DNA of 12,726 nt, from positions 1-12,726 of IMG/VR virus record IMGVR_UViG_2651869782_000036; one strand, given 5' to 3'. The stretch is from a virus. Lineage: Duplodnaviria > Heunggongvirae > Uroviricota > Caudoviricetes. The notes below the pieces were generated by a model that worked only from the letters and a program-made list of their open reading frames with translations, made no database searches and was not told where the DNA came from. A program made the position numbers and the translations under genes. Shown piece after piece: positions 1 to 12,726 of the stretch. Numbering within the stretch: the stretch's first letter is position 1; every line of letters begins with the position of its first letter.

Positions 1-468
1 CCGTGGCCTTCCGCCACTCCGCCAACAGGCTGGCTGAAATGCAACGGTGCAGCATTTTCTGCTGAAGAATACCCGGAACTGGCAAAGGCTTATCCGACAA
101 ATAAATTGCCTGATTTACGTGGTGAGTTTATTCGTGGCTGGGATGACGGACGTGGTATGGATACGGGGAGGGCAATATTATCAGCTCAGGGCGATGCCAT
201 ACGTAATATCTATGGTGAGTTCAAGACTGTAAACACCGAAAATTATTCAATATGGGAAGTAGCAAGCTCGTTTAAGGGAGCAGTGGTGCCTTTGAGTCCC
301 TCTACAAACAATAGTTATTTCTCCTTAACCAGAAGTATGGTGACAGAAAGAGCAGACGGCGCTGTTTACCCAAAAGTGATAGGCCTTGATGCTTCAAGAA
401 TTGTTCCAACTGCAAACGAAAACCGTCCTCGTAACATTGCGTTTAATTACATCGTAAGGGCAGTATGA
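1..468 (+). CDS. Tail fibre C-terminal variable cassette 1 (5'-truncated by the window edge; presumably fused to the constant fibre N-terminus upstream, i.e. the expressed tip)
   Basis: Frame open from nt 1 (PWPSATPPTGWLKCNGAAF...LPDLRGEFIRGWDDGRG...) to TGA at 466-468. Tail-collar-like motif PDLRGxFxRGWDxGRG and conserved C-terminal RPRNIAFNYIVRAV. Confidence 0.8.
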   Translation, partial: PWPSATPPTGWLKCNGAAFSAEEYPELAKAYPTNKLPDLRGEFIRGWDDGRGMDTGRAILSAQGDAIRNIYGEFKTVNTENYSIWEVASSFKGAVVPLSPSTNNSYFSLTRSMVTERADGAVYPKVIGLDASRIVPTANENRPRNIAFNYIVRAV

Positions 469-487
469 AAACGTTGGTTTGGGGGAA
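462..487. other. Candidate Gin-family crossover site (gix/hix-like 26 bp: AGTATGAAAACG TT GGTTTGGGGGAA), + orientation
   Basis: Marks the exact left edge of the sequence shared by all cassette heads. Right half-site read as TTCCCCCAAACC matches the gix half-site TTCCTGTAAACC as I recall it in 9 of 12 positions; AAAAC/GTTTT dyad around a non-palindromic TT core. Overlaps the stop codon of cassette 1. Confidence 0.6.
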
Positions 488-937
488 GGCTCTGCGTTGC
501 CCGTTGGTGTACCTGTTCCGTGGCCCTCAGCCACACCGCCAGCAGGGTGGCTGAAATGTAACGGTGCAGCATTTTCTTCTAAAATGTACCCAAAACTGGC
601 AAAGGCCTACCCCACCAATAAATTACCAGACTTACGCGGTGAATTTATCCGTGGCTGGGATGATGGGCGCGGGGTGGATGCCGGAAGGGGCATCTTAAGC
701 ATGCAGGGGTGGTTAACAGGAAGTCATTATCATAATATTCGGTCATGGGATGCGTGGGATAACACGGTGTTGGTGCCAAATGACAAAGGAGGGGATAGTC
801 TGTTGTCGACAGATAACGCCGTCCGGCAAGGTGCAATTAACGGTAGATTTACCAGTCAATACAGAACGGAATCCTCAGAGGGGAATGAAACCCGCCCACG
901 CAATATTGCCTTCAATTATATTGTGAGAACCGCATAA
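479..937 (+). CDS. Tail fibre C-terminal variable cassette 2 (silent, promoter-less cassette; the TTG start in the ORF track is probably not used, the frame is open from 458 through the crossover site)
   Basis: 152-aa ORF with the same conserved head (GEGSALPVGVPVPWPSATPPAGWLKCNGAAF...PDLRGEFIRGWDDGRG) and tail (RPRNIAFNYIVRTA) but a different central region; stop TAA at 935-937 overlaps the tfa start. Confidence 0.8.
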   Translation: MGEGSALPVGVPVPWPSATPPAGWLKCNGAAFSSKMYPKLAKAYPTNKLPDLRGEFIRGWDDGRGVDAGRGILSMQGWLTGSHYHNIRSWDAWDNTVLVPNDKGGDSLLSTDNAVRQGAINGRFTSQYRTESSEGNETRPRNIAFNYIVRTA

Positions 938-1548
938 TGAATAACGCGATATTAAATGATGACCTTATTGCCGTACAGGCAGGAAACATCGTCGTTTATA
1001 ACTATGATGGTGAGACACGGGAATATATTTCCGAATCAACTGAATATCTTGCTGTGGGTGTCGGTATTCCGGCAAATTCCTGTTTAGATGCCCCGGGCGC
1101 ACATAAAGCGGGCTATGCTATCCGCCGTTCGGAGAATTTAAGCTCATGGGAGTATGCGCCAGACCATCGTGGTGAAACCGTCTATAGCACTGACACGGGA
1201 AACACCGAAGAAATCACGGCGCTGGGTGACTACCCGAAAAATACAACCACTATCGCCCCGTTAACACCATACGATAAATGGGATGGTGAAAAATGGGTGA
1301 CAGATACTGAGGCACAACATCGTGCCGCAGTAGAAGCGGCAGAAACCAAGCGCCAGTCACTGGCTGATGCGGCAATGGCTTCCATAAGTCTGATTCAGTT
1401 GAAGTTGCAGGCCGGGCGGAAGTTGACGCAGGCAGAAACCACCCGGCTTAATGCCGTGCTGGATTATATAGACGCGCTGAACGCAATGGATATAAACATG
1501 GCACCAGATATCAACTTGCCGGAAATACCACTGGCAGCAGCCAGTTGA
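937..1548 (+). CDS. Tail fibre assembly protein (Tfa; P2 G / Mu U family)
   Basis: 203 aa; the C-terminal region (EAAETKRQSLADAAMASISLIQ...LDYIDALNAMDINMAPDINLPEIP) has the character of the caudoviral tail-fibre-assembly domain; start ATG overlaps the cassette 2 stop (TAATG). Confidence 0.85.
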   Translation: MNNAILNDDLIAVQAGNIVVYNYDGETREYISESTEYLAVGVGIPANSCLDAPGAHKAGYAIRRSENLSSWEYAPDHRGETVYSTDTGNTEEITALGDYPKNTTTIAPLTPYDKWDGEKWVTDTEAQHRAAVEAAETKRQSLADAAMASISLIQLKLQAGRKLTQAETTRLNAVLDYIDALNAMDINMAPDINLPEIPLAAAS

Positions 1549-1554
1549 ATATAA

Positions 1555-2031
1555 CTAAGCCGCCCTCACGATATAGTTAAATGCAATATTGCGGGGGCGG
1601 GTTTCACTACCACCTGTGTTACCAATACTTCCTCGTGAATGAAGCGTTGGTGATGGAATCAAACTCCCTCCTGTATTTGTGGCATCAAGCCCCCTGCCTT
1701 GCGTATATGTTTTTTTGAAAATCGTGGCCAACTCCCATTCATCCTTTGTGTCATATCCATCGTTAGCTACAACAATATGGCGGTGTTTTTCCAACATCCC
1801 GTTTTGAATGCTCAATAAAGCGCGTGCCGCATCAATTCCTCGCCCATCATCCCAGCCACGGATAAATTCACCGCGTAAGTCTGGTAATTTATTGGTGGGG
1901 TAGGCCTTTGCCAGTTTTGGGTACTTTTCAGAAGAAAATGCTGCGCCGTTACATTTCAGCCATCCCGTTGGCGGCGTGGCTGAGGGCCATGGAACGGGCA
2001 CACCAACGGGCAGTGCAGAGCCTTCCCCCAA
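1555..2031 (-). CDS. Tail fibre C-terminal variable cassette 3 (inverted, silent)
   Basis: 158-aa minus-strand ORF with the conserved head and tail (…SETRPRNIAFNYIVRAA) and a unique centre; convergent with tfa. Confidence 0.8.
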   Translation of the reverse strand: MGEGSALPVGVPVPWPSATPPTGWLKCNGAAFSSEKYPKLAKAYPTNKLPDLRGEFIRGWDDGRGIDAARALLSIQNGMLEKHRHIVVANDGYDTKDEWELATIFKKTYTQGRGLDATNTGGSLIPSPTLHSRGSIGNTGGSETRPRNIAFNYIVRAA

Positions 2032-2048
2032 ACCAACGTTTTCATGCT
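2023..2048. other. Candidate Gin-family crossover site (inverted orientation; TTCCCCCAAACC AA CGTTTTCATGCT)
   Basis: Reverse complement differs from the site at 462-487 by one base; overlaps the cassette 4 stop codon and the cassette 3 head. Confidence 0.6.
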
Positions 2049-2470
2049 GCCCTTACGATGTAATTAAACGCAATATTACGAGGACGAATGGTTACATAAT
2101 TAACCCCATCACCTCGTGAAGGCCCTGCAAATGAAAAACGGGAAAAGCCTGGTTGGTTAGAAACAATTTGGTCATAGTTATTGATTGAATGACCAGACCC
2201 AATGTCGAAATTACCTCCGTAATGAGAAAAACTTGTACCATCCTGCCCTGAAAGCAGGGTACGTCCCGCATCAATCCCGCGCCCATCATCCCAGCCACGG
2301 ATAAATTCACCGCGTAAATCCGGTAATTTATTGGTGGGATAAGCCCTTGCCAGTCTGGGATACATTTCAGAAGAAAATGCTGCACCGTTACATTTCAGCC
2401 AGCCCGTTGGTGGTGTTGCTGAGGACCACGGAACGGGCACACCAACGGGCAGTGCAGAGCCTTCCCCCAA
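2042..2470 (-). CDS. Tail fibre C-terminal variable cassette 4 (inverted, silent)
   Basis: 142-aa minus-strand ORF, conserved head and tail (…IRPRNIAFNYIVRAA), Gly/Ser-rich unique centre. Confidence 0.8.
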   Translation of the reverse strand: MGEGSALPVGVPVPWSSATPPTGWLKCNGAAFSSEMYPRLARAYPTNKLPDLRGEFIRGWDDGRGIDAGRTLLSGQDGTSFSHYGGNFDIGSGHSINNYDQIVSNQPGFSRFSFAGPSRGDGVNYVTIRPRNIAFNYIVRAA

Positions 2471-2487
2471 ACCAACGTTTTCATGCT
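2462..2487. other. Candidate Gin-family crossover site (inverted orientation)
   Basis: Same 26-bp sequence as the site at 2023-2048 (TTCCCCCAAACCAACGTTTTCATGCT); overlaps the cassette 5 stop and the cassette 4 head. Confidence 0.6.
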
Positions 2488-2948
2488 GCCCTTACGATGT
2501 AATTAAACGCAATGTTATGGGGGCGTGTTTCAGATGCTGTGCGAACTGAGCGAGAGGCGTCGAATGTCCATACAGAAGCACCATATCCTTCAATGATCTC
2601 AGTTGGTTGTAAGCCTACTGATAATATAGAGTCAGTTTGACTAAATGGTCCTGAATTAAGCGCATCTTTAAAAAGCTGAGTACGCCCAAAAGTGCCAACT
2701 ATATTCTGAATAGCGTCAGACTGTGCAGACAGTAGGTTGCGCCCATTATCAACGCCCCGTCCGTCATCCCAGCCGCGAATAAATTCGCCCCGTAAATCCG
2801 GTAATTTATTGGTGGGGTAGGCCTTTGCCAGATTGGGGTACATTTCAGAAGAAAATGCTGCGCCGTTACATTTCAGCCACCCCGTTGGCAGCGTGGCTGA
2901 GGGCCATGGAACGGGCACGCCAACGGGCAACGCAGAGCCTTCCCCCAA
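2481..2948 (-). CDS. Tail fibre C-terminal variable cassette 5 (inverted, silent; the ORF-track extension to 3005 is probably fortuitous read-through into the invertase promoter region)
   Basis: Conserved head (GEGSALPVGVPVPWPSATLPTGWLKCNGAAF…) and tail (SETRPHNIAFNYIVRAA); the centre resembles cassette 1 (…SAQSDAIQNI…). Confidence 0.75.
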   Translation of the reverse strand: MGEGSALPVGVPVPWPSATLPTGWLKCNGAAFSSEMYPNLAKAYPTNKLPDLRGEFIRGWDDGRGVDNGRNLLSAQSDAIQNIVGTFGRTQLFKDALNSGPFSQTDSILSVGLQPTEIIEGYGASVWTFDASRSVRTASETRPHNIAFNYIVRAA

Positions 2949-2965
2949 ACCAACGTTTTCGTTTT
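2940..2965. other. Candidate Gin-family crossover site adjacent to the invertase gene (TTCCCCCAAACC AA CGTTTTCGTTTT)
   Basis: Same right half-site and core as the other three sites; the left arm differs because it is not preceded by a cassette 3' tail. Lies ~55 bp upstream of the invertase start, as for cix/gix next to cin/gin. Confidence 0.55.
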
Positions 2966-3019
2966 TATCCCTACCTATACCAACTCTGTATTTTTCACGA
3001 AACAAAGAGGATGTTTTTT

Positions 3020-3619
3020 ATGCAAATTGGCTATATTCGTGTGTCAACAAATGACCAGAACACGGATTTACAACGCAATGCACTGAACTGCGCAGGATGT
3101 GAACTGATTTTTGAAGATAAAATCAGCGGAACGAAATCAGCCAGACCGGGATTGAAAAAACTGCTCAGAACGCTATCAGAAGGAGATACGCTGGTTGTCT
3201 GGAAGCTGGACAGACTGGGCAGAAGTATGAAACACCTGATCACGCTTATTGAGGAATTGCGGGAAAAAGGTGTTAATTTCCGTAGTCTGACGGACAGCAT
3301 TGACACATCAACACCCATGGGGCGTTTCTTTTTTCACGTCATGGGGGCTTTAGCCGAAATGGAACGTGAATTAATTGTAGAGCGTACACTGGCCGGGCTG
3401 GCAGCAGCACGCGCACAAGGACGCATTGGCGGACGTCGCCCGAAGTTGACAAAAGAACAACACGAGCAAATAGCGAGGCTGATTAAAAACGGTCATGACA
3501 GGAAACAACTGGCGATCATTTACGACATCGGCATATCGACGATTTATCGTTATCACCCTGCAGGCGATATACAGGCTGAAGAAACAACCAGGCAGACTCA
3601 GGAAAATAAAAACCGCTAA
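3020..3619 (+). CDS. Site-specific DNA invertase, serine recombinase (Gin/Hin/Cin/Pin family)
   Basis: Start MQIGYIRVSTNDQNTDLQRNAL… is the hallmark invertase N-terminus with the catalytic Ser in GYIRVST; C-terminal HTH (GRRPKLTKEQHEQIARLIKNG…ISTIYRY). RBS AAAGAGG 9 nt upstream of ATG 3020. The ORF-track start at 2825 is rejected. Confidence 0.93.
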   Translation: MQIGYIRVSTNDQNTDLQRNALNCAGCELIFEDKISGTKSARPGLKKLLRTLSEGDTLVVWKLDRLGRSMKHLITLIEELREKGVNFRSLTDSIDTSTPMGRFFFHVMGALAEMERELIVERTLAGLAAARAQGRIGGRRPKLTKEQHEQIARLIKNGHDRKQLAIIYDIGISTIYRYHPAGDIQAEETTRQTQENKNR

Positions 3620-3641
3620 TCTGACCATTAGCGGTTTTGCG
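3608..3641. terminator. Bidirectional rho-independent terminator shared by the convergent invertase gene and tail operon
   Basis: Perfect 8-bp stem CCGCTAAT / ATTAGCGG (3613-3620, 3627-3634) with a 6-nt loop, flanked by an A-run on the left and TTTT on the right; the invertase stop codon lies inside the stem. Confidence 0.6.
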
Positions 3642-3645
3642 TTAA

Positions 3646-4134
3646 TCAAAACAGCCCTTTAACGGAGCTGGCCGCGCTGTTAAGGGATGATGTGACCTTA
3701 TCTTTGAAGCCGGACAGCATATCACTGAACGATGAGGATTGCAGGCGCTCCCGCAAATCCTCATCACAGCGTCCAAGAGTCAGTGAAAATTCTATCTTTT
3801 TCGCCTTACCGTAGCGATCAAACTCGGAACGGGTCGTATTCGTTTCAGTCAGTACATACATGCCGTAAATCTGCCCGACACCATCAATCAGAGGCCAGGG
3901 GCGTCCTGTATATGCCTGCGTGGTCAGCAACGAAAGCGACACTTCGCCACCTGTAATTTCAGGATAAAGCACGCCGGAAAGCACGATGCGATCATCACCT
4001 GCGCCGATATACTGCCAGCTTGCTGAACGATTAACGCGTTCATTTTTCACATGCCGCCAGCTTTTGTTTTGCTGTAACTGCTGATGCGGCAATGTGCGCA
4101 GCTCAAAAACAAACATGCCGTAGATCATCATCAT
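3646..4134 (-). CDS. U: Phage tail protein U (P2 gpU family)
   Basis: MMMIYGMFVFELRTLP…SASWQY…GGEVSLSLLTTQAYTGRPWPLIDG… resembles P2 gpU as I recall it; size and position after T fit. Start chosen at the second ATG (better SD spacing; the GAGGAG SD overlaps the T stop); ATG 4140 is the alternative. Confidence 0.85.
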   Translation of the reverse strand: MMMIYGMFVFELRTLPHQQLQQNKSWRHVKNERVNRSASWQYIGAGDDRIVLSGVLYPEITGGEVSLSLLTTQAYTGRPWPLIDGVGQIYGMYVLTETNTTRSEFDRYGKAKKIEFSLTLGRCDEDLRERLQSSSFSDMLSGFKDKVTSSLNSAASSVKGLF

Positions 4135-4146
4135 GGCCATGACTCC

Positions 4147-6963
4147 TCAATCTTTATCGTAAAAACTGCCACGTCCGGCACGGTCGCGTCGTTCCAATTC
4201 TGCCCTGACCATTTCACCGACCAGTTTCGCCAGTTCGCGGGGATTCTGCGTAACAACGTTATGCAGATGAACATGAATTTCACCGCCAAATCCGGAGACA
4301 ACAGGCTCCCGGTTACGGGAAGTTGCAGGAACTGATGCCACTGGCGATCGTATGGCCTCCGCCACCGGGCGGGAGCTGGCCGCAACAACAGGGACCAGCG
4401 CCGGAGGCAGAGGAGTCGGGACCACGGGTGTGATGTTGATTGCGGAAGCAGGCTTACTGACCTGCGCAATCTTCCGCTCCTGCCACTCCCCACGAACAGC
4501 AAGTGCGCGGGGCAGGTTCTTAAAGACAATATCGCCGGGGCCAATGCGTTTTTTCGTCTCATCAACCAGCTTACCTGTGTTATCAGCAATTTTGCTGAGT
4601 CTGCGTAGCGTACCGGTATTGCTGTCTGTGAGCGGTTTGTTGTCTTTGGGTTTATCACCTCCGGTGCCATTGCCATTTTCCACAGGCTTCGGCGGATTGA
4701 TTTTCGCCAGGTCCCCCTGAAGCAAGGCAACCTTGTCCTGAAGAATGGCCGCACGCTGTGCGTCTTCGATTTTCTTGCGCGCCCTTTCCGCTTCATCCGG
4801 AAGGACGCCAAGTTTTTCAAGTATCCACGCCAGCGTATCCAGTAGCATTTTTGCAGGCGTCAGAACAAGTTGTAACGCACCGCCAAGAACGTTACCGAAT
4901 ATCTCGCCAGCACTGGTACATTTTTCCAGCGTTTCCTTGCTGGACTCCATCGGTGACAGCAGCGATTTAAACCAGTTAAACACCTGGCTGATCCCGCTTC
5001 CGATTGCGTCAAAAACAGGACCAAACCGTTCAAAGGTTTCGCGCAACGGGGCCAGCCTTTCCATAATCCCGCTGAACACCCCGGCAAAAAATGCCCTGAT
5101 GGGATCCCAGTATTTCCAGATAAGAACGGCAGCTCCGGCAAGTGCAGCCACGATAAGACTAACCGGACTGAACAGCGCCCCGATAGCGCCTCCCAGTAAA
5201 GAAACGGAACCCGTCACCATTCCCCATAGTGCTGGCAGGACCCTGACAGCATTCATTGATCCGGTCAGGAGAGAAAAACCAAGACGCAGTTTTGCCAGCG
5301 GACCAGCAAGCATACCAATAGCCAGCGACAACGAGCCAACCGTTGCAGTCATTGCCAGCAACGCACCGCCTGCTATCAGTAGCTGGCGCGTCAGTGCCGG
5401 ATGGGCCTGCGCCAGCGCCGTCACCCTTGATACCACCCGCGTGAGCCACTGCGTGACAGAACGCAGCGGACCGTCAATCAGATCTGCAATGCGGATGCGC
5501 AACCCTTCCCATGCACTGCCGAGTGATTTCAGATCGCCGTCAAGGTTGTTGGCCATAACCTTTGCTGTGCGTTCAGCCTCACCGCGCGCGCCTTCAAGTT
5601 CTTTTCTCAGTTTGGGTAAGGAACCGTCACCCACTGCATCAACGAGCGCCATAAACGATGTGAAAGCCTCTTCTCCGGCAATGTCCTTAAAGAACGATAC
5701 CCGGTCAACTTCCCCGTATTTGCGGGTGGCTTTATAAAGGTCGGCCAGCACATCCTCCATCGGGCGCATTTTACCCCCGGCATCCGAGACGGACACGCCC
5801 AGCTCTTTCAGAGCTTCTGCCGCCGCCTTTGGCGGTGATGCCAGACGAGCCAGGCTGGCACGCATTGCCGTCCCGGCATCACTCCCTCTGATGCCCATAT
5901 TCGCCAGCACGCCAGCCATCGCTGCGGCCTGCTCCAGCGATATTCCCAGCTTACCCGCCACCGGACCTGCATATTTCATGGTTTCGCCCAGTGCGCGAAG
6001 GTCAGTGTTGGTACGGGTAAACGCTGCGGTGAGTGTGTCACCGACCCGGTCCATCTGGTCAGCAGAAAGGCCGAACTGCGTCAGGATATTTGAGCCAATA
6101 TCTGCCGTCTCGCCGAGATCCATACCGCCAGCCGTTGCCATGCTCAGCACTCCGGGAAGCGCAGCCTGAATGGCCTGCGGTGTGAAGCCTGCCATTGCAA
6201 GAAATGCCTGCCCACTGGCGGCATCGCCTGCAGTGAACTGCGTTTCAGAGCCAAGTTTTAACGCCTGTTCACGCAGCGCCTTAAACTGCGGGCTGTTCTG
6301 GTCGATTCGCGTCAGTGCCTGAACGCGGGACATCTCTTTCCCGAACCCGATCGCAGGCTGCAAAAAACGCCCGGCAGCATAGCTGCCAGCCGCTGCCGCA
6401 CCAATTGCCAGCGCACCACCTGTTTTCAGTTTTCCCGCGGTTTCCTGCGCGCGCGAATACCGCTCACGCGCACGTGTTACACGCGCAAGCGCCTGCCGTT
6501 CGCGTTCAAGCTGGTTGTTGTACTGTTCGGTGCGTCTGATGGCCTGCTGGATGGTGTTATCGCTGCCTGTCAGGGAAATGCCGTGGCGTTTCAGCTCTCC
6601 GCCAAGCTCCCGCATTTTCTGAATTTCCCGTGTGCGCGATTCATTCAGGCGTTCAAGCCGGGTGCTTAACTGCTGCATCAGCTTTTGTTGTTTTTCGCTG
6701 AGCACTGTACCCGTGCGTTGTAACTGATTAAGGGCGTTAAGCTGGCGTCGTGCTTTCAATATGCCAGCATCCGCTTTACCGACAGCGTCACGGGCGCGCT
6801 CAAATGAACGCGCCTGACGCTCGAGATTTTTGATCGCCCCCTGCGTTCGCTGGATGGAGTCACCAAACTGCCCCATCAGGCGGCGGGCGTTTTCGGCAGG
6901 CCGGGTCAGCCTGTCAACGGCGCTGAAAGCGACCCGGATGTCAAGAGTCTTCATTGTCTGCAT
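4147..6963 (-). CDS. T: Tail tape measure protein (P2 gpT family)
   Basis: ~940-aa Ala/Gly/Leu-rich ORF with a coiled-coil-like N-terminal half and hydrophobic Gly-rich segments, located between the E/E' chaperone and U. Start uncertain (ATG 6963 or 6954; the ORF track uses GTG 6990). Confidence 0.85.
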   Translation of the reverse strand: MQTMKTLDIRVAFSAVDRLTRPAENARRLMGQFGDSIQRTQGAIKNLERQARSFERARDAVGKADAGILKARRQLNALNQLQRTGTVLSEKQQKLMQQLSTRLERLNESRTREIQKMRELGGELKRHGISLTGSDNTIQQAIRRTEQYNNQLERERQALARVTRARERYSRAQETAGKLKTGGALAIGAAAAGSYAAGRFLQPAIGFGKEMSRVQALTRIDQNSPQFKALREQALKLGSETQFTAGDAASGQAFLAMAGFTPQAIQAALPGVLSMATAGGMDLGETADIGSNILTQFGLSADQMDRVGDTLTAAFTRTNTDLRALGETMKYAGPVAGKLGISLEQAAAMAGVLANMGIRGSDAGTAMRASLARLASPPKAAAEALKELGVSVSDAGGKMRPMEDVLADLYKATRKYGEVDRVSFFKDIAGEEAFTSFMALVDAVGDGSLPKLRKELEGARGEAERTAKVMANNLDGDLKSLGSAWEGLRIRIADLIDGPLRSVTQWLTRVVSRVTALAQAHPALTRQLLIAGGALLAMTATVGSLSLAIGMLAGPLAKLRLGFSLLTGSMNAVRVLPALWGMVTGSVSLLGGAIGALFSPVSLIVAALAGAAVLIWKYWDPIRAFFAGVFSGIMERLAPLRETFERFGPVFDAIGSGISQVFNWFKSLLSPMESSKETLEKCTSAGEIFGNVLGGALQLVLTPAKMLLDTLAWILEKLGVLPDEAERARKKIEDAQRAAILQDKVALLQGDLAKINPPKPVENGNGTGGDKPKDNKPLTDSNTGTLRRLSKIADNTGKLVDETKKRIGPGDIVFKNLPRALAVRGEWQERKIAQVSKPASAINITPVVPTPLPPALVPVVAASSRPVAEAIRSPVASVPATSRNREPVVSGFGGEIHVHLHNVVTQNPRELAKLVGEMVRAELERRDRAGRGSFYDKD

Positions 6964-7162
6964 TCCCGCTGCGAAGTGCCGCCCGCTCACGCCAGCTAAC
7001 CACTTCGCCGGGCGTCATCATGAAGATTTCGGCGGGCGACCAGTTAAAAATGGCGGCGATATCTGCCACCAGATCTTCGATGTGCTCAAAGCACACCAGG
7101 GTGATTACGCTGCCGTCTCCTGCACGCTCTTCGCGCCAGAGTCTGGCTCGCTCATAAAATTT
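6941..7162 (-). CDS. E' extension: -1 frame ORF giving the E+E' tail assembly chaperone by programmed frameshift
   Basis: An ORF in the -1 frame relative to E, with no independent SD, overlaps the 3' part of E and the start of T; a canonical slippery heptamer A AAT TTT sits in the E frame inside the overlap. Confidence 0.5.
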   Translation of the reverse strand, partial: KFYERARLWREERAGDGSVITLVCFEHIEDLVADIAAIFNWSPAEIFMMTPGEVVSWRERAALRSGNADNEDS

Positions 7163-7479
7163 ACAGCCACAGCGCACAACTGAATAAAATCGCGTGACGA
7201 CATTTTTTTAATCATCACTTCATCCAGTCGTGGCGAGGTCACGCGAGGCAACAGCGTGAACATGGTATCCGCTTTCAGATTCAGCACATCAGACAGCGAC
7301 AGACCACGCAGGGATCCAGCCTGTTCAATAGCCCCGGTGATCTCCACATACGTGATTTTTTCGCCACCACGCTCAATTGGTCGGGTCAGTTTTACGCCAC
7401 GTTCGACAGCCATATCCTCACCTGCCGTCACATCATCCGCCACGGTGTTATTCCGGGTTTCAGTATCGATGTCTTTCAT
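7105..7479 (-). CDS. E: Tail assembly chaperone E (P2 gpE family)
   Basis: 124-aa ORF between tube and tape measure genes with a strong SD (AAAGGAG, 7 nt spacing); the position and the overlapping -1 ORF match the conserved chaperone pair (lambda G/GT, P2 E/E+E'). Confidence 0.7.
   Translation of the reverse strand: MKDIDTETRNNTVADDVTAGEDMAVERGVKLTRPIERGGEKITYVEITGAIEQAGSLRGLSLSDVLNLKADTMFTLLPRVTSPRLDEVMIKKMSSRDFIQLCAVAVNFMSEPDSGAKSVQETAA
7156..7162 (-). other. Candidate -1 programmed frameshift slippery heptamer A AAT TTT (read on the minus strand)
   Basis: Zero-frame codons GTA AAT TTT ATG (…AVNFM…); a -1 re-pairing gives AAA TTT TAT GAG… = KFYE…, exactly the E' reading frame. Confidence 0.4.
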
Positions 7480-7534
7480 CAGTTGTCTCCTTTTCAGTCA
7501 GAGGCGACGCACTGCGCCGCCTGCATATTACTTA

Positions 7535-8047
7535 TCAGCCAAGCCCGAGCGCGGAACGGATGCGATCGGGCACAATGTCCTTGCCGTCCTTCCGGTAAAT
7601 GAAGTTCAGCAGGTCAATCTCCCACAACGGGCGATCGTTAACACTCAGCTTGTAGTAGGTGTTTTTAATGGCGTAAGTGTGTGATGTGGCTTCGCCCTGT
7701 TTGGCTTCCCCCATATCAATTTCCGTCACACGTCCGCGCATTTCGACTTCATACAGGTCGCTTTCTGCATCGGTGTAGTATTCACCCGCAAAACGCAGCA
7801 GCGTGCCGTCAATCGTGCCGCCATACTTAAGGAACAGCTCACGAACTGCGCCCCCCATGACAAAGCTCGCATCAAGCGCGGAGTCGTCCAGACCGAGATC
7901 AATACTTACCGCACCCATCATGCCACCACCCCGGTAGCTGTCGGTTTTGCGCGTCAGCTTAGGCAGAGTGACGGACGTCACCTTACCCACTTCGTTTTCA
8001 CCATCCACAAACAGCGTAAAAAAGCGAAGATGTTTTGGTACAGCCAT
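7535..8047 (-). CDS. FII: Tail tube protein (P2 gpFII family)
   Basis: 170 aa; MAVPKHLRFFTLFVDGENEVGKVTSVTLPKLTRKTDSYRGGGMMGAVSIDLGLDD… resembles P2 FII as I recall it (…VTLPKLTRK…YRGAGM…DLGLDD…). Start ATG overlaps the FI stop (TGATG); SD GGGAGG. Confidence 0.88.
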   Translation of the reverse strand: MAVPKHLRFFTLFVDGENEVGKVTSVTLPKLTRKTDSYRGGGMMGAVSIDLGLDDSALDASFVMGGAVRELFLKYGGTIDGTLLRFAGEYYTDAESDLYEVEMRGRVTEIDMGEAKQGEATSHTYAIKNTYYKLSVNDRPLWEIDLLNFIYRKDGKDIVPDRIRSALGLG

Positions 8048-9231
8048 CAGGCACCTCCCAGCACCGCAAATGCGGGACCAAAGAATTCATCAGTAAACGA
8101 CTGGTAAAGCTCCATGTCTTCCAGCGGGGGAACAGGCGTATATTTGTAGCGAATACGCACGCGCCCCTGACGTAAATTCGTGGTGCCGTTATCCACCACG
8201 TCATACCAGCACGACGCCCCAATCAGTTTCCCGGCAGTAACCAGTGAATCCAGTTTTGCCCTGATGGCACTGATAACATCTTTCACGTTCGCAGGCGTCA
8301 GTGGACTGTCGATGGTTTCAAACTGCGCTTCCGCAATTGAATCAGCCAGCACCTGTGCGGTTCGGGTATACACCTCAAAGATGTAGGCGTTCGTTTCCGG
8401 TGTGCGGTTGCCCCAGAAGCGGAACCCGTTGCGACGAATAATGGTCGTGATTTCTTTGTTGTTGAGGCTGTTGGCATCACTGTCTTCGGCCTGCAACGAC
8501 CAGAACACATGCCTAGACATCCCCAGCACATTTTTAACCGGAACGTTGGACAGCGATTTGTGCCAGCCCTGCTCATGGTCAATGTACGCACGAAGGCCGC
8601 ACGCATAGGCAGGCGCGGGGAACGTTTCGTTTTTGCCACTTTTCGGGTTGTAGGCGATGAAGTCCGGCCATAAGAGCATCACCTCACGTTCGTTGAATTT
8701 CTGGCGATAGGTAATCGCCTCAGCCATCGTGTTACAGCCGTGACATGAGGCATACACAAACGCGCGCAGTTTACCTGCAATCACGCACAGGGATTTTGTT
8801 ACCGCCTCCGTGTCCAGCTCCGGCGCGGCCAGAATACGCGGACGGTATCCGATGCTTTCATCCTGCTCTGCAACAAGCAGCGCATACATCCCCGTATAGC
8901 TGCCGTCAGATTCAGAACCACCGATAACCAGTTGATCCTGCGTTTTTCCGTCTTCTTCTTTGTGTTCAGCCACGCGAACGACGATCACCTTTGTGCTCAC
9001 CTGGTCTGCGATGGCCTTAAGCGCACGATAAAGCGTCCCCGTTGTTCCGCATTTTCCCAGCACGTCATTGACGCGGGTCAGCAGTGTGGGCTTGTTCAGC
9101 GGGAACAGCTCCGCATCCGCATCATCCGCCGTTGCCACGATACCGATAACACTGGAATCAACATCATTAATCGCTGTTACCAGGTCGGTACTTTCCGTAA
9201 CACGGGCACCATGAAAACGAGTTTCACTCAT
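8047..9231 (-). CDS. FI: Contractile tail sheath protein (P2 gpFI family)
   Basis: 394 aa; motifs shared with P2 FI as I recall it (ADDADAELFPLNKP, GFRFWGNRT, YTRTAQV, YTPVPPLE); SD AAGGGG upstream of ATG 9231. Confidence 0.9.
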   Translation of the reverse strand: MSETRFHGARVTESTDLVTAINDVDSSVIGIVATADDADAELFPLNKPTLLTRVNDVLGKCGTTGTLYRALKAIADQVSTKVIVVRVAEHKEEDGKTQDQLVIGGSESDGSYTGMYALLVAEQDESIGYRPRILAAPELDTEAVTKSLCVIAGKLRAFVYASCHGCNTMAEAITYRQKFNEREVMLLWPDFIAYNPKSGKNETFPAPAYACGLRAYIDHEQGWHKSLSNVPVKNVLGMSRHVFWSLQAEDSDANSLNNKEITTIIRRNGFRFWGNRTPETNAYIFEVYTRTAQVLADSIAEAQFETIDSPLTPANVKDVISAIRAKLDSLVTAGKLIGASCWYDVVDNGTTNLRQGRVRIRYKYTPVPPLEDMELYQSFTDEFFGPAFAVLGGA

Positions 9232-9388
9232 AGCTTCAGCCCCTTGTATCCGTTAAATGATTCAGCAACAATCATCACCCACCACGCGCGTAATCTCACC
9301 CCTGCGCTATTCTCCCGCCACGGCGACAACAAAAAGCAGTAACCCACTCCGCACGCACATGCGACCATGCCGCACAGGGAGGGAACAG

Positions 9389-10498
9389 ATGACCGACACC
9401 ACCATGCAATTGCTCAGTCAGGGCACAGACCCCGTGAAAATGCCGGATTTTGATATTCTCGCGGAGGGTAAAACGCTGTCCGGCGTGGCAGAGCGCCTGA
9501 TGAGCCTGTCGCTGACCGACAACCGGGGATTTGAGGCGGACCAGCTCACCATCACGCTGGATGATGCCGATGGCCAGTTGCAGCTACCGCCACGGGGCGC
9601 GCGTCTGACGGTTCTCATTGGCTGGAAAGGGGAACCGCTGACAGAAAAAGGCACTTACATTGTTGATGAAATCGCTCACGAAGGACCGCCGGACAGGCTG
9701 ACTGTTTCAGCCAGAAGCGCAGATTTTCGGGATGAATTTAACGTTAAACGTGAGGTGTCCTGGCATGATGTGACCGTTGAGCGTGTGGTATCCGCCATCG
9801 CTCATCGGTACGGTCTGAAACCGCAAATCAGCGAAATGCTGATGGATATCGAAATCGACCACGCCGACCAGACCGAAGAAAGCGACATGTCCTTTCTTAC
9901 GCGCATGGCGGAAATGCTGGGCGCAATCACCACGGTAAAAAGCGGCAATCTGTTATTCATCATGCCAGGTGGTGGCGTGAACGCACAGGGCCAGCCGTTG
10001 CCCTCGTTCGCCATTACACGCAGCAGCGGCGATCGCCATCAGTTCCGTATTGCTGACCGCGAGGCGTATACGGGGGTACGCGCCTACTGGCTTGATCTTA
10101 ATTACGGGAAAAAGAAAAAAGTCAGCGTGAAACGCCGTAAACCGCCAAAACCCAAAAAGGAGAAAAGCAGCAGCCGTGAAGGTGATTATATGGAAGGCGC
10201 GGAAGGCAATGTGTTTGTGTTACGCAAGACTTATCAGAACGAGCAGGCAGCAAGACGCGCAGCGGCGGCAAAGTGGCAGCAACTACAACGCGGAGCCGCA
10301 TCATTCTCCATCACACTGGCTCGTGGACGCGCAGAACTCTACCCCGAAATGCATGGCACGGTGACAGGCTTCAAAAGTGACATCGACAATCAGGACTGGA
10401 TTATTGCAAAAGCCGAGCACACCATTGATAACAGCGGCTTTACCACGCAGCTTGAGCTTGAAGCAAAAATCCCGGAATGGATAGCAGAAACAGAGTGA
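9389..10498 (+). CDS. D: Phage late control / tail protein D (P2 gpD family)
   Basis: ~369 aa from ATG 9389, preceded by SD GGGAGGGAA; contains LSLSLTDNRGFEADQLTITLDDADG, which matches the gpD family as I recall it. The ORF-track start at 9257 is rejected as having no SD. Adjacent to ogr as in P2. Confidence 0.75.
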   Translation: MTDTTMQLLSQGTDPVKMPDFDILAEGKTLSGVAERLMSLSLTDNRGFEADQLTITLDDADGQLQLPPRGARLTVLIGWKGEPLTEKGTYIVDEIAHEGPPDRLTVSARSADFRDEFNVKREVSWHDVTVERVVSAIAHRYGLKPQISEMLMDIEIDHADQTEESDMSFLTRMAEMLGAITTVKSGNLLFIMPGGGVNAQGQPLPSFAITRSSGDRHQFRIADREAYTGVRAYWLDLNYGKKKKVSVKRRKPPKPKKEKSSSREGDYMEGAEGNVFVLRKTYQNEQAARRAAAAKWQQLQRGAASFSITLARGRAELYPEMHGTVTGFKSDIDNQDWIIAKAEHTIDNSGFTTQLELEAKIPEWIAETE

Positions 10499-10540
10499 GC
10501 AACTTAGAATAGCGGCAGCACCACGTTAAGGGAGGTCGCT

Positions 10541-10801
10541 ATGTTCCGTTGTCCGCTTTGTGGCGCATCTGCCCGTATCCGCACCAGTCGTTCGGAAAAT
10601 GATTCAAACACCGTACGGAAAAAATATTACCAGTGTAACAACCTGGAATGCGGCATAAGTTTCTCAACACTGGAAGCTTTCCATAAATTCACATCGAAAC
10701 ACGCCCCCGGCGTTCACTCTTCAGAAGGTATCCCGTGGCATGAGTTGCCAGCTTCACACAGGGGAAACAATCAGATGAGTTTGCCTTTATCTCAGAATTA
10801 A
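10541..10801 (+). CDS. ogr: Ogr/Delta-family zinc-finger late transcription activator
   Basis: 86 aa; MFRCPLCG…(22 aa)…CNNLEC gives the C-X2-C-X22-C-X4-C spacing typical of Ogr; N-terminus resembles P2 Ogr (MFHCPLC…). SD TAAGGGAGG 5 nt upstream. Confidence 0.8.
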   Translation: MFRCPLCGASARIRTSRSENDSNTVRKKYYQCNNLECGISFSTLEAFHKFTSKHAPGVHSSEGIPWHELPASHRGNNQMSLPLSQN

Positions 10802-10810
10802 CAGGCAGAA

Positions 10811-10839
10811 TTGCCGGAGTAACAAAAAAGCGATAGATT
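10811..10839 (+). promoter_or_regulatory. Putative sigma70 promoter of the hok-like transcript (-35 TTGCCG, 17-bp spacer, -10 TAGATT)
   Basis: Hexamers are weak matches to consensus (4/6 each), with 17-bp spacing, placed so that a transcript would begin near 10846, at the 5' element that is complementary to the 3' end of the transcript. Sequence-only guess. Confidence 0.3.
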
Positions 10840-10992
10840 ACGCGCGGGTGCCTTTCGGCTGATGGTCGGAGGGAATACCCGAAGGCCGGATGTGGAAAGG
10901 CCCCGGAAAACATCTCTGTTTAACCGAGGCCCTAACATATCTACCTTAAGCAAGTGATAGGTTAGCGCCTCTCCAACAAAGGAGCAAGCGCT

Positions 10993-11133
10993 ATGTCGCA
11001 AAAATCGCTTACGGCCATCACGTTCTGCGTGACGGTAATCCTCATAATCTGGATGCTGCACGGTTCGCTGTGTGAAATACGGATGAGCTTCTGGGGAGCG
11101 GAGTTTGCGGCGTTCTTACAGTGTAAGCAGTAA
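10993..11133 (+). CDS. Hok/Gef-family type I toxin-like small membrane protein (46 aa)
   Basis: MSQKSLTAITFCVTVILIIWMLHGSLCEIRMSFWGAEFAAFLQCKQ: N-terminal hydrophobic helix followed by SLCEIR and E-x-AAF-x-x-C/Y, as in Hok (…[23 protein letters not shown]…). SD AAGGAG 8 nt upstream of the ATG. Below the 60-aa cutoff of the ORF track. Confidence 0.65.
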   Translation: MSQKSLTAITFCVTVILIIWMLHGSLCEIRMSFWGAEFAAFLQCKQ

Positions 11134-11220
11134 GGAAACCGCGACGGGGGAGCAATCCCCCGTCAATCGGTTGCCAGGGTAAGGTCGATAAGGCACCCTA
11201 TCTCACAGACATGAACAACA

Positions 11221-11253
11221 AACCCGCAGCGTAAAAACTGCGGGTTTTCTTTT
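11221..11253 (+). terminator. Rho-independent terminator (downstream of the hok-like gene)
   Basis: Stem CCCGCAG / CTGCGGG with an 8-nt loop, followed by TTTTCTTTTT. Confidence 0.65.
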
Positions 11254-11284
11254 TGGTTCCCTCACTCATGAGGACACCAAAAAC

Positions 11285-11317
11285 AAAGCCCATAGCATAG
11301 AATGCTGTGGGCTTTTT
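11285..11317. terminator. Hairpin with flanking T-runs on both strands (bidirectional terminator candidate)
   Basis: AAAGCCCATAGCA (loop tagaa) TGCTGTGGGCTTT then TTTTT on +; on the minus strand the same hairpin is followed by TTTGTTTTTGG. Confidence 0.5.
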
Positions 11318-11392
11318 GCATTCAAAGATGGACGTTATATGGACACTTAAAAATAAAATCCATTTATTTTCAAATAATTAAACTTCTACTTA

Positions 11393-11413
11393 AAGCGCCC
11401 GCAGGCGCTTTTT
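11393..11413. terminator. GC hairpin plus T-run immediately downstream of serS (terminator candidate, better formed for + strand transcription)
   Basis: AAGCGCC (loop CGCA) GGCGCTT followed by TTT on +; on the serS (minus) side the trailing run is only TTTAAG, so the assignment to serS is uncertain. Confidence 0.45.
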
Positions 11414-11433
11414 AGATTCAGAAAAATTGGGTA

Positions 11434-12726
<1,293 letters not shown>

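Follow-up and report, generated by a model that had tools for sequence, protein, structure and literature searches.

The window analyzed here, the 12,726-nt stretch of the IMG/VR record IMGVR_UViG_2651869782_000036, is the right arm of a P88-like prophage (Xuanwuvirus, Peduoviridae) adjoining serS. We mapped its genes from open reading frames and Pfam matches, with protein identities taken against the P2 homologs (Table 1). The contractile-tail late set of Peduoviridae is present, comprising FI, FII, E/E′, T, U, and D together with an Ogr/Delta-type activator, at 33–49% identity to P2. Within the tail set, only the match of E to Phage_TAC_7 falls under the curated cut-off. Annotated relatives helped to place the start codons: with its ATG at 3020, the invertase gene is 600 nt long, the length annotated in P88_4B11 and UTI89, and the T frame can be extended to a GTG at 6990, with the ATG at 6954 giving the length annotated in P88. 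The D frame extends upstream as far as an ATG at 9257; the start chosen, at 9389, is preceded by the ribosome-binding site GGGAGGG and yields 1110 nt, the annotated D length in P88_4B11, and near the N-terminus the product aligns from residue 19 onward with P2 D from residue 15 onward. The cysteines of the Ogr homolog are spaced C4-X2-C7-X24-C32-X4-C37. Translational frameshifting between E and E′ would be expected by analogy with P2 and 186, and a heptamer at 7162–7156, AAATTTT, has the X XXY YYZ pattern when read in the E frame and is a possible slippery site. The hairpin next to U is probably a bidirectional terminator ending the leftward F operon. Rfam and tRNA scans across the window gave no matches.

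Table 1. Genes and candidate control elements of the tail region, in window coordinates.
Feature	Position	Strand	Basis
DNA invertase (serine recombinase)	3020–3619	+	Pfam Resolvase (2.8e-51) and HTH_7
Hairpin, 12-bp stem, A-run and T-run flanks	3609–3638		Terminator scan; between the invertase and U stop codons
gpU homolog, final gene of leftward F operon	3646–4140	−	Pfam Phage_P2_GpU (2.5e-38); 46% to P2 U
gpT tape-measure	4147–6954	−	Pfam PhageMin_Tail (3.7e-58); 33% to P2 T
E′ frame (−1 relative to E)	6941–7177	−	Pfam Phage_P2_GpE (2.1e-12); overlaps 3′ end of E and start of T
gpE tail assembly chaperone	7105–7479	−	Weak Pfam Phage_TAC_7 (4.7e-4); 35% to P2 E
gpFII tail tube	7535–8047	−	Pfam Phage_tube (7.5e-47); 42% to P2 FII
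gpFI tail sheath, lead gene of leftward F operon	8047–9231	−	Pfam sheath domains; 46% to P2 FI
FI–D divergent control region, 157 bp	9232–9388		Gap between FI and D start codons
Candidate −10 GATGAT, leftward PF	9271–9276	−	43.5–48.5 bp from box center; predicted start ~9264
Ogr-box-like dyad TCT-N12-ACA (candidate)	9311–9328		One mismatch to TGT-N12-ACA; center 9319.5
Candidate −10 GACCAT, rightward PD	9363–9368	+	43.5–48.5 bp from box center; predicted start ~9375
gpD baseplate hub, lead gene of rightward unit with ogr	9389–10498	+	Pfam Phage_GPD (3.4e-17); 49% to P2 D
Ogr/Delta-type zinc-finger late activator, 86 aa	10541–10801	+	Pfam Ogr_Delta (1e-15); 40% to P2 Ogr

The original prediction, that the tail block is inverted relative to D and ogr, was borne out by the open reading frames and Pfam matches: the minus strand carries U, T, E/E′, FII, and FI (3646–9231), and the plus strand D and ogr. 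The F block converges on the plus-strand invertase gene, which faces U, and the distance of 157 bp between FI and D is exact. The order given there for P2 is also correct: in the P2 reference record, one strand holds FI, FII, E, E′, T, U, D, and ogr. Compared with P2, the FI–U block alone is flipped, and D is uncoupled from U as proposed. The window therefore does not have the canonical F-operon layout of P2 and 186 (genera Peduovirus, Eganvirus, and Felsduovirus), with FI–U on the minus and D–ogr on the plus strand. One consequence of the inversion is that U and D are no longer overlapping, co-translated neighbors. The claim that the intergenic region must carry divergent promoters can be accepted, FI and D being divergent.

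We compared the window with P88, P88_4B11, PhiR44_2, 500465-2, 520873, Chuche, Citrobacter Shae_phiSM, and the UTI89 prophage at serS. It is collinear with P88 and other Xuanwuvirus genomes at 92–96% identity; collinear megablast matches to 3026–11206 were found in eight named Xuanwuvirus-type phages, and this interval matched as a single piece, at 94–96%, in P88, P88_4B11, and Shae_phiSM. Being collinear with P88 and P88_4B11 at this level of nucleotide identity, the window can be assigned to Xuanwuvirus as far as the right arm, the part that it covers. Its FI is 100% identical to that of phage PhiR44_2. Gene order and strands in the Xuanwuvirus set are identical to those of the window, the FI–D gap is also 157 bp, and hok likewise follows ogr. 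The differences lie in the fiber and cassette region (1–3000) and at the extreme right end, and in some relatives IS elements disrupt D or tail genes. Among 5426 complete E. coli genomes, 294, with UTI89 as one of them, have the same end of the prophage at serS, which places the group in about 5% of them at this site alone.

The flipped block is real, and it is the fixed ancestral layout of a P2-like clade in Enterobacterales rather than a new rearrangement. D and FI were divergent in all 78 close IMG/VR loci; in 76 of these, the FI–D gap measured by tblastn was 157–158 bp, and in the other two D was split by an insertion. In a survey of one genome per species, the inverted order was found in 23/23 loci whose FI was 57–99% identical to that of the window, which span at least 13 enterobacterial genera, and the canonical order in 57/57 loci nearer P2, Burkholderia included. 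Annotated phages of at least five ICTV genera are inverted (Xuanwuvirus, Novemvirus, Reipivirus, Reginaelenavirus, and Senquatrovirus): P88 and P88_4B11 have the same strands as the window, and phiT5282H, SEN5, ST16-OXA48phi5.4, and 3LV2017 are also inverted, whereas P2, 186, phiMhaA1, and SopEPhi are canonical. The clade order is V-W-J-I-H-G rightward, U-T-E′-E-FII-FI leftward, and D-ogr rightward. The original prediction had offered two possibilities, a sublineage layout or a rearrangement, and had named a synteny comparison as the check; close relatives share the orientation uniformly, so that the layout is an ordinary feature of the lineage and not an anomaly of this genome. It is already known, from deposited genomes rather than from a published statement, and we found no explicit account of the inversion in the searchable papers on P88, SEN4/5, phiSM, and PP4. 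A gene order that looks odd beside textbook P2 is thus the norm in a common group of enterobacterial prophages and should not be flagged as a rearrangement.

The invertase gene abuts U, and one IMG/VR contig (L017) is rearranged through T beside a second invertase copy. These observations could be taken to mean that the adjacent enzyme switches the block back and forth, or that it reflects a recent private rearrangement or an assembly artifact. Such readings are hardly credible, because a single orientation was found in 101/101 loci nearer the FI of the window than that of P2 (78 IMG/VR loci and 23 species genomes), the invertase is missing from most inverted loci of other genera, and no inverted repeats flanking 3646–9231 were found. 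Near the junctions of the block, the only inverted-repeat pairs found were of 14–17 nt, 82–86% complementary, within coding sequence and at chance level. The invertase serves the tail-fiber cassettes to the left of its gene rather than the F block. All the 280-bp inverted repeats fall inside 1–3005, among the fiber cassettes. Inverted crossover sites at either end and the natural occurrence of both orientations, the features of Gin/Cin/Min-type switched segments, are found only in the fiber cassettes at 403–3005 and not in 3646–9231. How the fixed order arose can be approached through phylogeny. The inverted group was monophyletic for both FI (29/29) and D (26/26) in simple neighbor-joining trees with midpoint rooting and without support values, and this recovery of one clade suggests that the stretch between the FI promoter and the end of U was inverted in place once, long ago. 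Alternatively, the FI–U block could have come from a different phage lineage and entered in reverse orientation; phages do exchange tail modules, and tail genes of Peduoviridae have been shuffled elsewhere, with T relocated in phiMhaA1 and V/W moved in Smp131 (PMC3931495). We regard such a replacement as improbable, since the block is as far from P2 (FI 46%, FII 42%, and U 46% identity) as its neighbors are (D 49%, V 47%, and J 54%), an evenness that extends to the head and baseplate proteins (26–64%). The agreement of the FI and D trees and a spacing between the putative activator site and the FI start that matches P2 and 186 also argue against it.

We next consider the region between FI and D, in which the original prediction had noted the lack of an Ogr-type TGT-N12-ACA motif. 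The exact form is indeed absent from 9232–9388, and its two matches in the whole window, both elsewhere, are not above chance. The statement is nevertheless misleading, as a dyad with one mismatch, TCT-N12-ACA, occupies the site at which the exact motif is found in relatives (SEN5, 3LV2017, and loci L103 and L105/106). The exact motif was dropped as a test, as it also misses all three annotated activator sites of P2. The right half of the dyad extends as ACAACAAAAAG to position 9336, and its center is separated from the start codons of FI and D by 88.5 and 69.5 bp, respectively. The left half-site is weak (TCT in the window, CCT in loci L098 and L151). In an alignment of 10 diverse relatives (A2), which shows conserved blocks in the FI–D region, ACAA is invariant. 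T[CG]T-N12-ACA occurs exactly once in the FI/D region and once in the P/O region of each of five full genomes, where roughly 0.07–0.12 per region would be expected by chance, a figure that treats homologous regions as independent and applies to a motif defined post hoc, after inspection of these regions. Genome-wide counts of TST-N12-ACAAC were not significant by themselves, and only location, conservation, and cross-prediction give weight to the box.

Cross-prediction was based on a matrix trained on the FI/D sites only. Its best non-self match in four full genomes was the P/O late control site, and in SEN5 the top three matches were the S–V gap, FI/D, and P/O. The matrix misses the own sites of P2, so that the specificity differs from that of P2 Ogr. 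In annotated genomes, the distance from the box center to the FI start is 81–88 bp in five inverted genomes, compared with 83 bp for P2 and 82.5 bp for 186. An extra late promoter in the gap that precedes R in P88 (18979–19115) was considered and rejected: the gap contains no box, and UTI89 has lysC annotated over the corresponding stretch.

Late promoters that depend on Ogr, B, or Delta are characterized by a TGT-N12-ACA dyad with its center about 55 bp upstream of the start, by a −35 element that is poor or absent, and by a −10 that can be recognized. In the window, candidate −10 hexamers lie about 44–49 bp on either side of the box center, which is the geometry of the mapped late promoters of P2 and 186, although both are weak, with 3–4 of 6 consensus positions. 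On the PF side, alignment A2 shows a conserved column block, AT.AT, and its position fits a box-centered line-up with the annotated starts of P2 and 186. On the PD side, the hexamer aligns with GATCCT, AATCAT, AACCAT, and GACGAT of relatives and, in the same line-up, with the −10 regions of the annotated P2 and 186 starts. A CGCGCGCG block precedes the PD hexamer in most relatives and recurs on the P side of P/O. The block is shared by D-side and P-side promoters, yet it lies on opposite sides relative to the orientation of the box. With the predicted PD start, the leader of D would be short, about 14 nt.

Taken together with the P2 arrangement at PP/PO, these features suggest that a single Ogr box at 9311–9328 may serve two divergent late promoters, PF and PD, starting at ~9264 leftward and ~9375 rightward; each start would be about 55 bp from the box center, a distance predicted in the window from the −10-like hexamers. 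The inversion would have carried the Ogr-dependent FI promoter together with its dyad activator site and set them down beside D, which would then be read from a new promoter across the same site. The dyad symmetry of the Ogr box may have allowed this promoter to evolve on the far side after the one-way PF had landed by D. A different reading holds that D and ogr are transcribed independently of Ogr, by an early or constitutive promoter in 9329–9388, and that the conserved box belongs to the FI promoter only. The activator genes of P2 and 186 do have their own activator-independent promoter just upstream, the D–ogr gap in the window is merely 42 bp, so that ogr may need a promoter further upstream, and the D-side hexamer of the window is a weak one. 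However, a sigma-70 consensus scan of 9232–9388 returned no site, and promoter-like sites in the 3′ end of D (10361–10404) could serve ogr instead. Moreover, the D-side hexamer stands at +44 to +49, the offset of the −10 regions of P2 and 186 late promoters, and is preceded by the CGCGCGCG block as at the P-side promoter of P/O. We therefore consider an independent D promoter rather unlikely. We hold with considerable confidence that the inverted layout is the fixed order of the P88-like clade, that it goes back to one in-situ inversion, and that FI and D are kept under one putative shared Ogr box. The broader proposal, that the clade runs essentially all its late genes from two bidirectional activator sites (P/O and FI/D), the latter made by inversion, is one toward which we lean only slightly.

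If true, this would be a natural case of promoter capture by inversion and would offer a second, independent test bed for bidirectional Ogr-type activation. For P2 specialists, the bidirectional Ogr-box plan of PP/PO appears to be used again in this clade, at the junction of sheath and D. Lysogens of P88 and phiSM, and UTI89, make an easy system, with one small zinc-finger activator and two divergent promoters, and they also bear on how an operon survives being split by inversion.

At PP/PO, the P2 record gives one activator site (3057–3087) and starts at 3016 (leftward) and 3127 (rightward), so that, as proposed for the window, one dyad stands midway between divergent late units, with starts about 55 bp away and −10s at 44–49 bp. 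In P2, however, the shared-site arrangement exists only at P/O, and FI-FII-E-T-U-D is read from the one-way PF; the P/O and FI sites of P2 read TGT-N12-CCA, whereas that of the window reads TCT-N12-ACAACAAAAAG. The F operons of P2 and 186 have the same seven tail genes and activator gene (ogr/B), apparently the same E/E′ frameshift arrangement, and about the same distance from the box to the FI start, but in the window FI–U is inverted and D heads a unit with ogr. The inverted clade also lacks the S–V gap and PV promoter of P2, SEN5 excepted. Among other Peduoviridae, Stenotrophomonas Smp131 and Mannheimia phiMhaA1 are similar in that tail-gene order varies while the Ogr-type control logic is kept (PMC3931495 for Smp131), and one shared box has been described for the PP′ and PO′ promoters of Smp131 (PMC3931495). 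The genes that moved are different ones, V/W in Smp131 (PMC3931495) and T in phiMhaA1, and in phiMhaA1 U and D are still co-directional.

The window's gene map, built from the ORF list and Pfam matches, is given in the table; the coordinates in the original prediction, which had described FI to U as inverted relative to D-ogr, were all correct. FI and D are separated by 157 bp (9232-9388). The D reading frame is open upstream as far as 9257, and its start at 9389 is preceded by a strong ribosome-binding site, gives the length annotated in P88_4B11 and aligns with the N-terminus of P2 D. An AAATTTT heptamer (7156-7162, minus strand, E frame), located where the GpE-family -1 frame ORF overlaps E, is a candidate programmed-frameshift site, whereas the P2 site is annotated as a run of T.

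Features of the window and candidate -10 hexamers in the FI-D gap
Feature	Position	Strand	Sequence
Tail-fibre C-terminus and assembly gene	1-1548	+	
Three silent fibre cassettes	1555-3005	-	
Serine invertase	3020-3619	+	
U	3646-4140	-	
T	4147-6954	-	
E' (-1 frame)	6941-7177	-	
E	7105-7479	-	
FII	7535-8047	-	
FI	8047-9231	-	
D	9389-10498	+	
ogr	10541-10801	+	
hok-type toxin gene	10993-11133	+	
Host serS	11434-12726	-	
Candidate -10, FI side	9276-9271	-	GATGAT
Candidate -10, D side	9363-9368	+	GACCAT

In the P2 reference record, a single strand carries FI, FII, E/E', T, U, D and ogr, all transcribed from PF, and U abuts D; the P2 order given in the original prediction was right. The synteny comparison proposed with it found the canonical order in P2, 186 (Eganvirus) and SopEPhi (Felsduovirus) and the inverted one in P88-like relatives; Mannheimia phiMhaA1 is co-directional as in P2 for FI-FII-E-U-D. 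By megablast, P88, P88_4B11, PhiR44_2, 500465-2, 520873, Chuche, 503458 and Citrobacter Shae_phiSM were collinear with 3026-11206 at 92-96% identity, mostly as a single piece, and the annotated P88 and P88_4B11 records have the same strands as the window. Of the 80 IMG/VR loci at 98-100% FI identity, 78 contain both genes, and D and FI were divergent in every one of these, with a tblastn FI-D gap of 157-158 bp except in two where D is split by an insertion. The prophage end against serS was found in 294 of 5426 complete E. coli genomes (the best only 97.9% identical over 8800-12726), including NU14 and UTI89, the latter annotated with the same gene order. Between the two options originally left open, a sublineage norm or a rearrangement, the relatives are uniformly inverted: the layout is the norm and not private to this genome.

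Scanning an FI alignment against one genome per bacterial species yielded 80 survey loci, which separated cleanly in tblastn searches using proteins from the window, P88 and P2. In all 23 loci at 57-99% FI identity to the window, ogr-D is on the opposite strand to FI-FII-E-T-U, and I-J-W-V follows; their hosts include Salmonella, Citrobacter, Edwardsiella, Enterobacter, Kosakonia, Symbiopectobacterium, Mixta, Pantoea, Trabulsiella, Erwinia, Izhakiella, Klebsiella and Pectobacterium, among others. The loci nearer P2 (57/57; Burkholderia, Paraburkholderia and Trinickia among the hosts) read V-W-J-I-FI-FII-E-T-U-D-ogr on one strand. Besides Xuanwuvirus, the inverted order is annotated in phages of four ICTV genera: Novemvirus (phiT5282H), Senquatrovirus (SEN5), Reipivirus (ST16-OXA48phi5.4) and Reginaelenavirus (3LV2017). 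The prophage belongs to the P88-like group, and since the layout is common to that group and can already be seen in deposited, annotated records from five genera, the original prediction accurately described what is an ordinary feature of the lineage. We found no comment on the layout in the literature searched (P88, SEN4/5, phiSM, PP4); tail-gene shuffling is documented in other P2-like lineages (PMC3931495 and the phiMhaA1 record). Two Vagococcus sp. WN89Y contigs (L086 and L126; Firmicutes label) carry, besides a P2-type tail cluster, a P88-like prophage whose FI shows 98% identity to the window, which suggests enterobacterial DNA contamination or mislabelling of that assembly.

In neighbor-joining trees of FI (29/29) and of D (26/26), all inverted loci group together as one clade, and canonical loci are paraphyletic around it in the D tree. 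Foreign replacement of the FI-U block is very unlikely because the genes differ little in their identity to P2 (FI 46%, FII 42%, E 35%, T 33%, U 46%, D 49%); P88 head and baseplate proteins are 26-64% identical to P2. The invertase was likewise rejected as the cause, since most inverted loci lack its gene. A search for inverted repeats at the block junctions found none remaining. These results are most simply explained by a single ancient inversion that spanned everything between the FI promoter and the end of U and became fixed in the ancestor of the inverted genera.

As originally stated, 9232-9388 contains no exact TGT-N12-ACA by pattern search; a conserved T(C/G)T-N12 variant is there nonetheless. 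TGT-N12-ACA is the literature consensus (PMC3931495) and no strict rule: the exact motif was not found at any of P2's three annotated activator sites, of which the P/O and FI sites are TGT-N12-CCA. Aligned FI-D gaps of diverse relatives share the core T(C/G)T-N12-ACAAC(A)AAA, with ACAA invariant, which in the window is TCTCCCGCCACGGCGACAACAAAAAG (9311-9336). SEN5, 3LV2017 and the compared loci L103 and L105/106 have an exact TGT-N12-ACA at the orthologous position, and in L098 and L151 the left half-site has decayed to CCT. In each of five complete genomes, the FI/D and P/O gaps contain exactly one site apiece (chance expectation, ~0.07-0.12 per region); by homology with P2, the P/O gap is the bidirectional Ogr-responsive region. 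When a position matrix trained on FI/D sites alone was scanned over whole genomes on both strands, its best other match was the P/O site in P88, phiT5282H, ST16-OXA48phi5.4 and 3LV2017, and its three best matches in SEN5 were the S-V gap, FI/D and P/O. SEN5 retains a 157-bp S-V gap containing an exact TGT-N12-ACA (9263-9280) and a CGCGCGCG block, suggesting a PV-like third late control region; the gap is missing in the other four inverted genera, where S abuts or overlaps V.

The box centre (9319.5) lies 88.5 bp from the FI ATG; in P2 and 186 this distance is 83 and 82.5 bp, respectively, and across the five inverted genomes it ranges over 81-88 bp. With regions lined up on the box centre, weak -10-like hexamers occur 44-49 bp away on both sides, the same offset as the -10 regions upstream of annotated starts at P2 PO, PF and PV and 186 pJ, from which we predict starts near 9264 (leftward) and 9375 (rightward). 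A single P2 activator site (3057-3087) is annotated for two starts, 3016 and 3127, each 55-56 bp from the centre of the site. The CGCGCGCG block lies just upstream of the D-side hexamer in most relatives, and likewise at the P-side promoter of the P/O region. We propose that the 86-aa Ogr homologue binds 9311-9328 and may activate both the rightward D-ogr unit and the leftward FI-FII-E/E'-T-U operon, which would end at a hairpin (3609-3638); the inversion would have brought PF up to D, and the symmetry of the box would have let a second promoter form. The main rival, that an activator-independent promoter drives D-ogr, is less likely, though not negligible: a promoter scan found no consensus sigma-70 promoter in the FI-D gap, which fits activator-dependent promoters. 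The sole mildly new element is this proposed second bidirectional Ogr box.

Two close relatives (L023, 4150-5368; L036, 5246-6464) have an insertion of ~1.2 kb, presumably an IS element, that interrupts D at residue 89/90, and IS100-family elements are also annotated in phages 520873 and 503458. Another close relative (L017, IMGVR_UViG_2654587728_000014, 3499-10681) has a tape-measure gene broken at residue 455, and the distal half of the gene, U and an invertase are inverted and adjoin a second, 86%-identical invertase copy; unlike the lineage-wide layout, this reflects either a genuine rearrangement or chimeric assembly. The deposited Shae_phiSM genome (OR565851.1) has sheath and tube genes ~96% identical (DNA) to the window, at odds with the long non-contractile, siphovirus-type tail described for phiSM by electron microscopy (PMC6456863).

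At the prophage-host junction (11200-11434), just downstream of serS, no exact att core was located; P88 similarity ends near 11254, and terminator-like hairpins lie nearby (11142-11165 and 11220-11247). The Hok/Gef-family gene between ogr and the prophage end (Pfam 3.7e-07), also annotated in P88, P88_4B11 and UTI89, had no antisense RNA match in Rfam at gathering score. At the other end, a ~280 bp stretch (403-705, plus strand) recurs as three inverted copies (1805-2086, 2264-2546 and 2748-2960; 88-90% complementary), and the minus-strand ORFs 1555-2031, 2042-2470 and 2481-3005 each contain a phage tail collar domain. Judged from these repeats and domains, 403-3005 looks like a multi-cassette invertible tail-fibre system, in which the adjacent invertase would switch the fibre tip between several forms.
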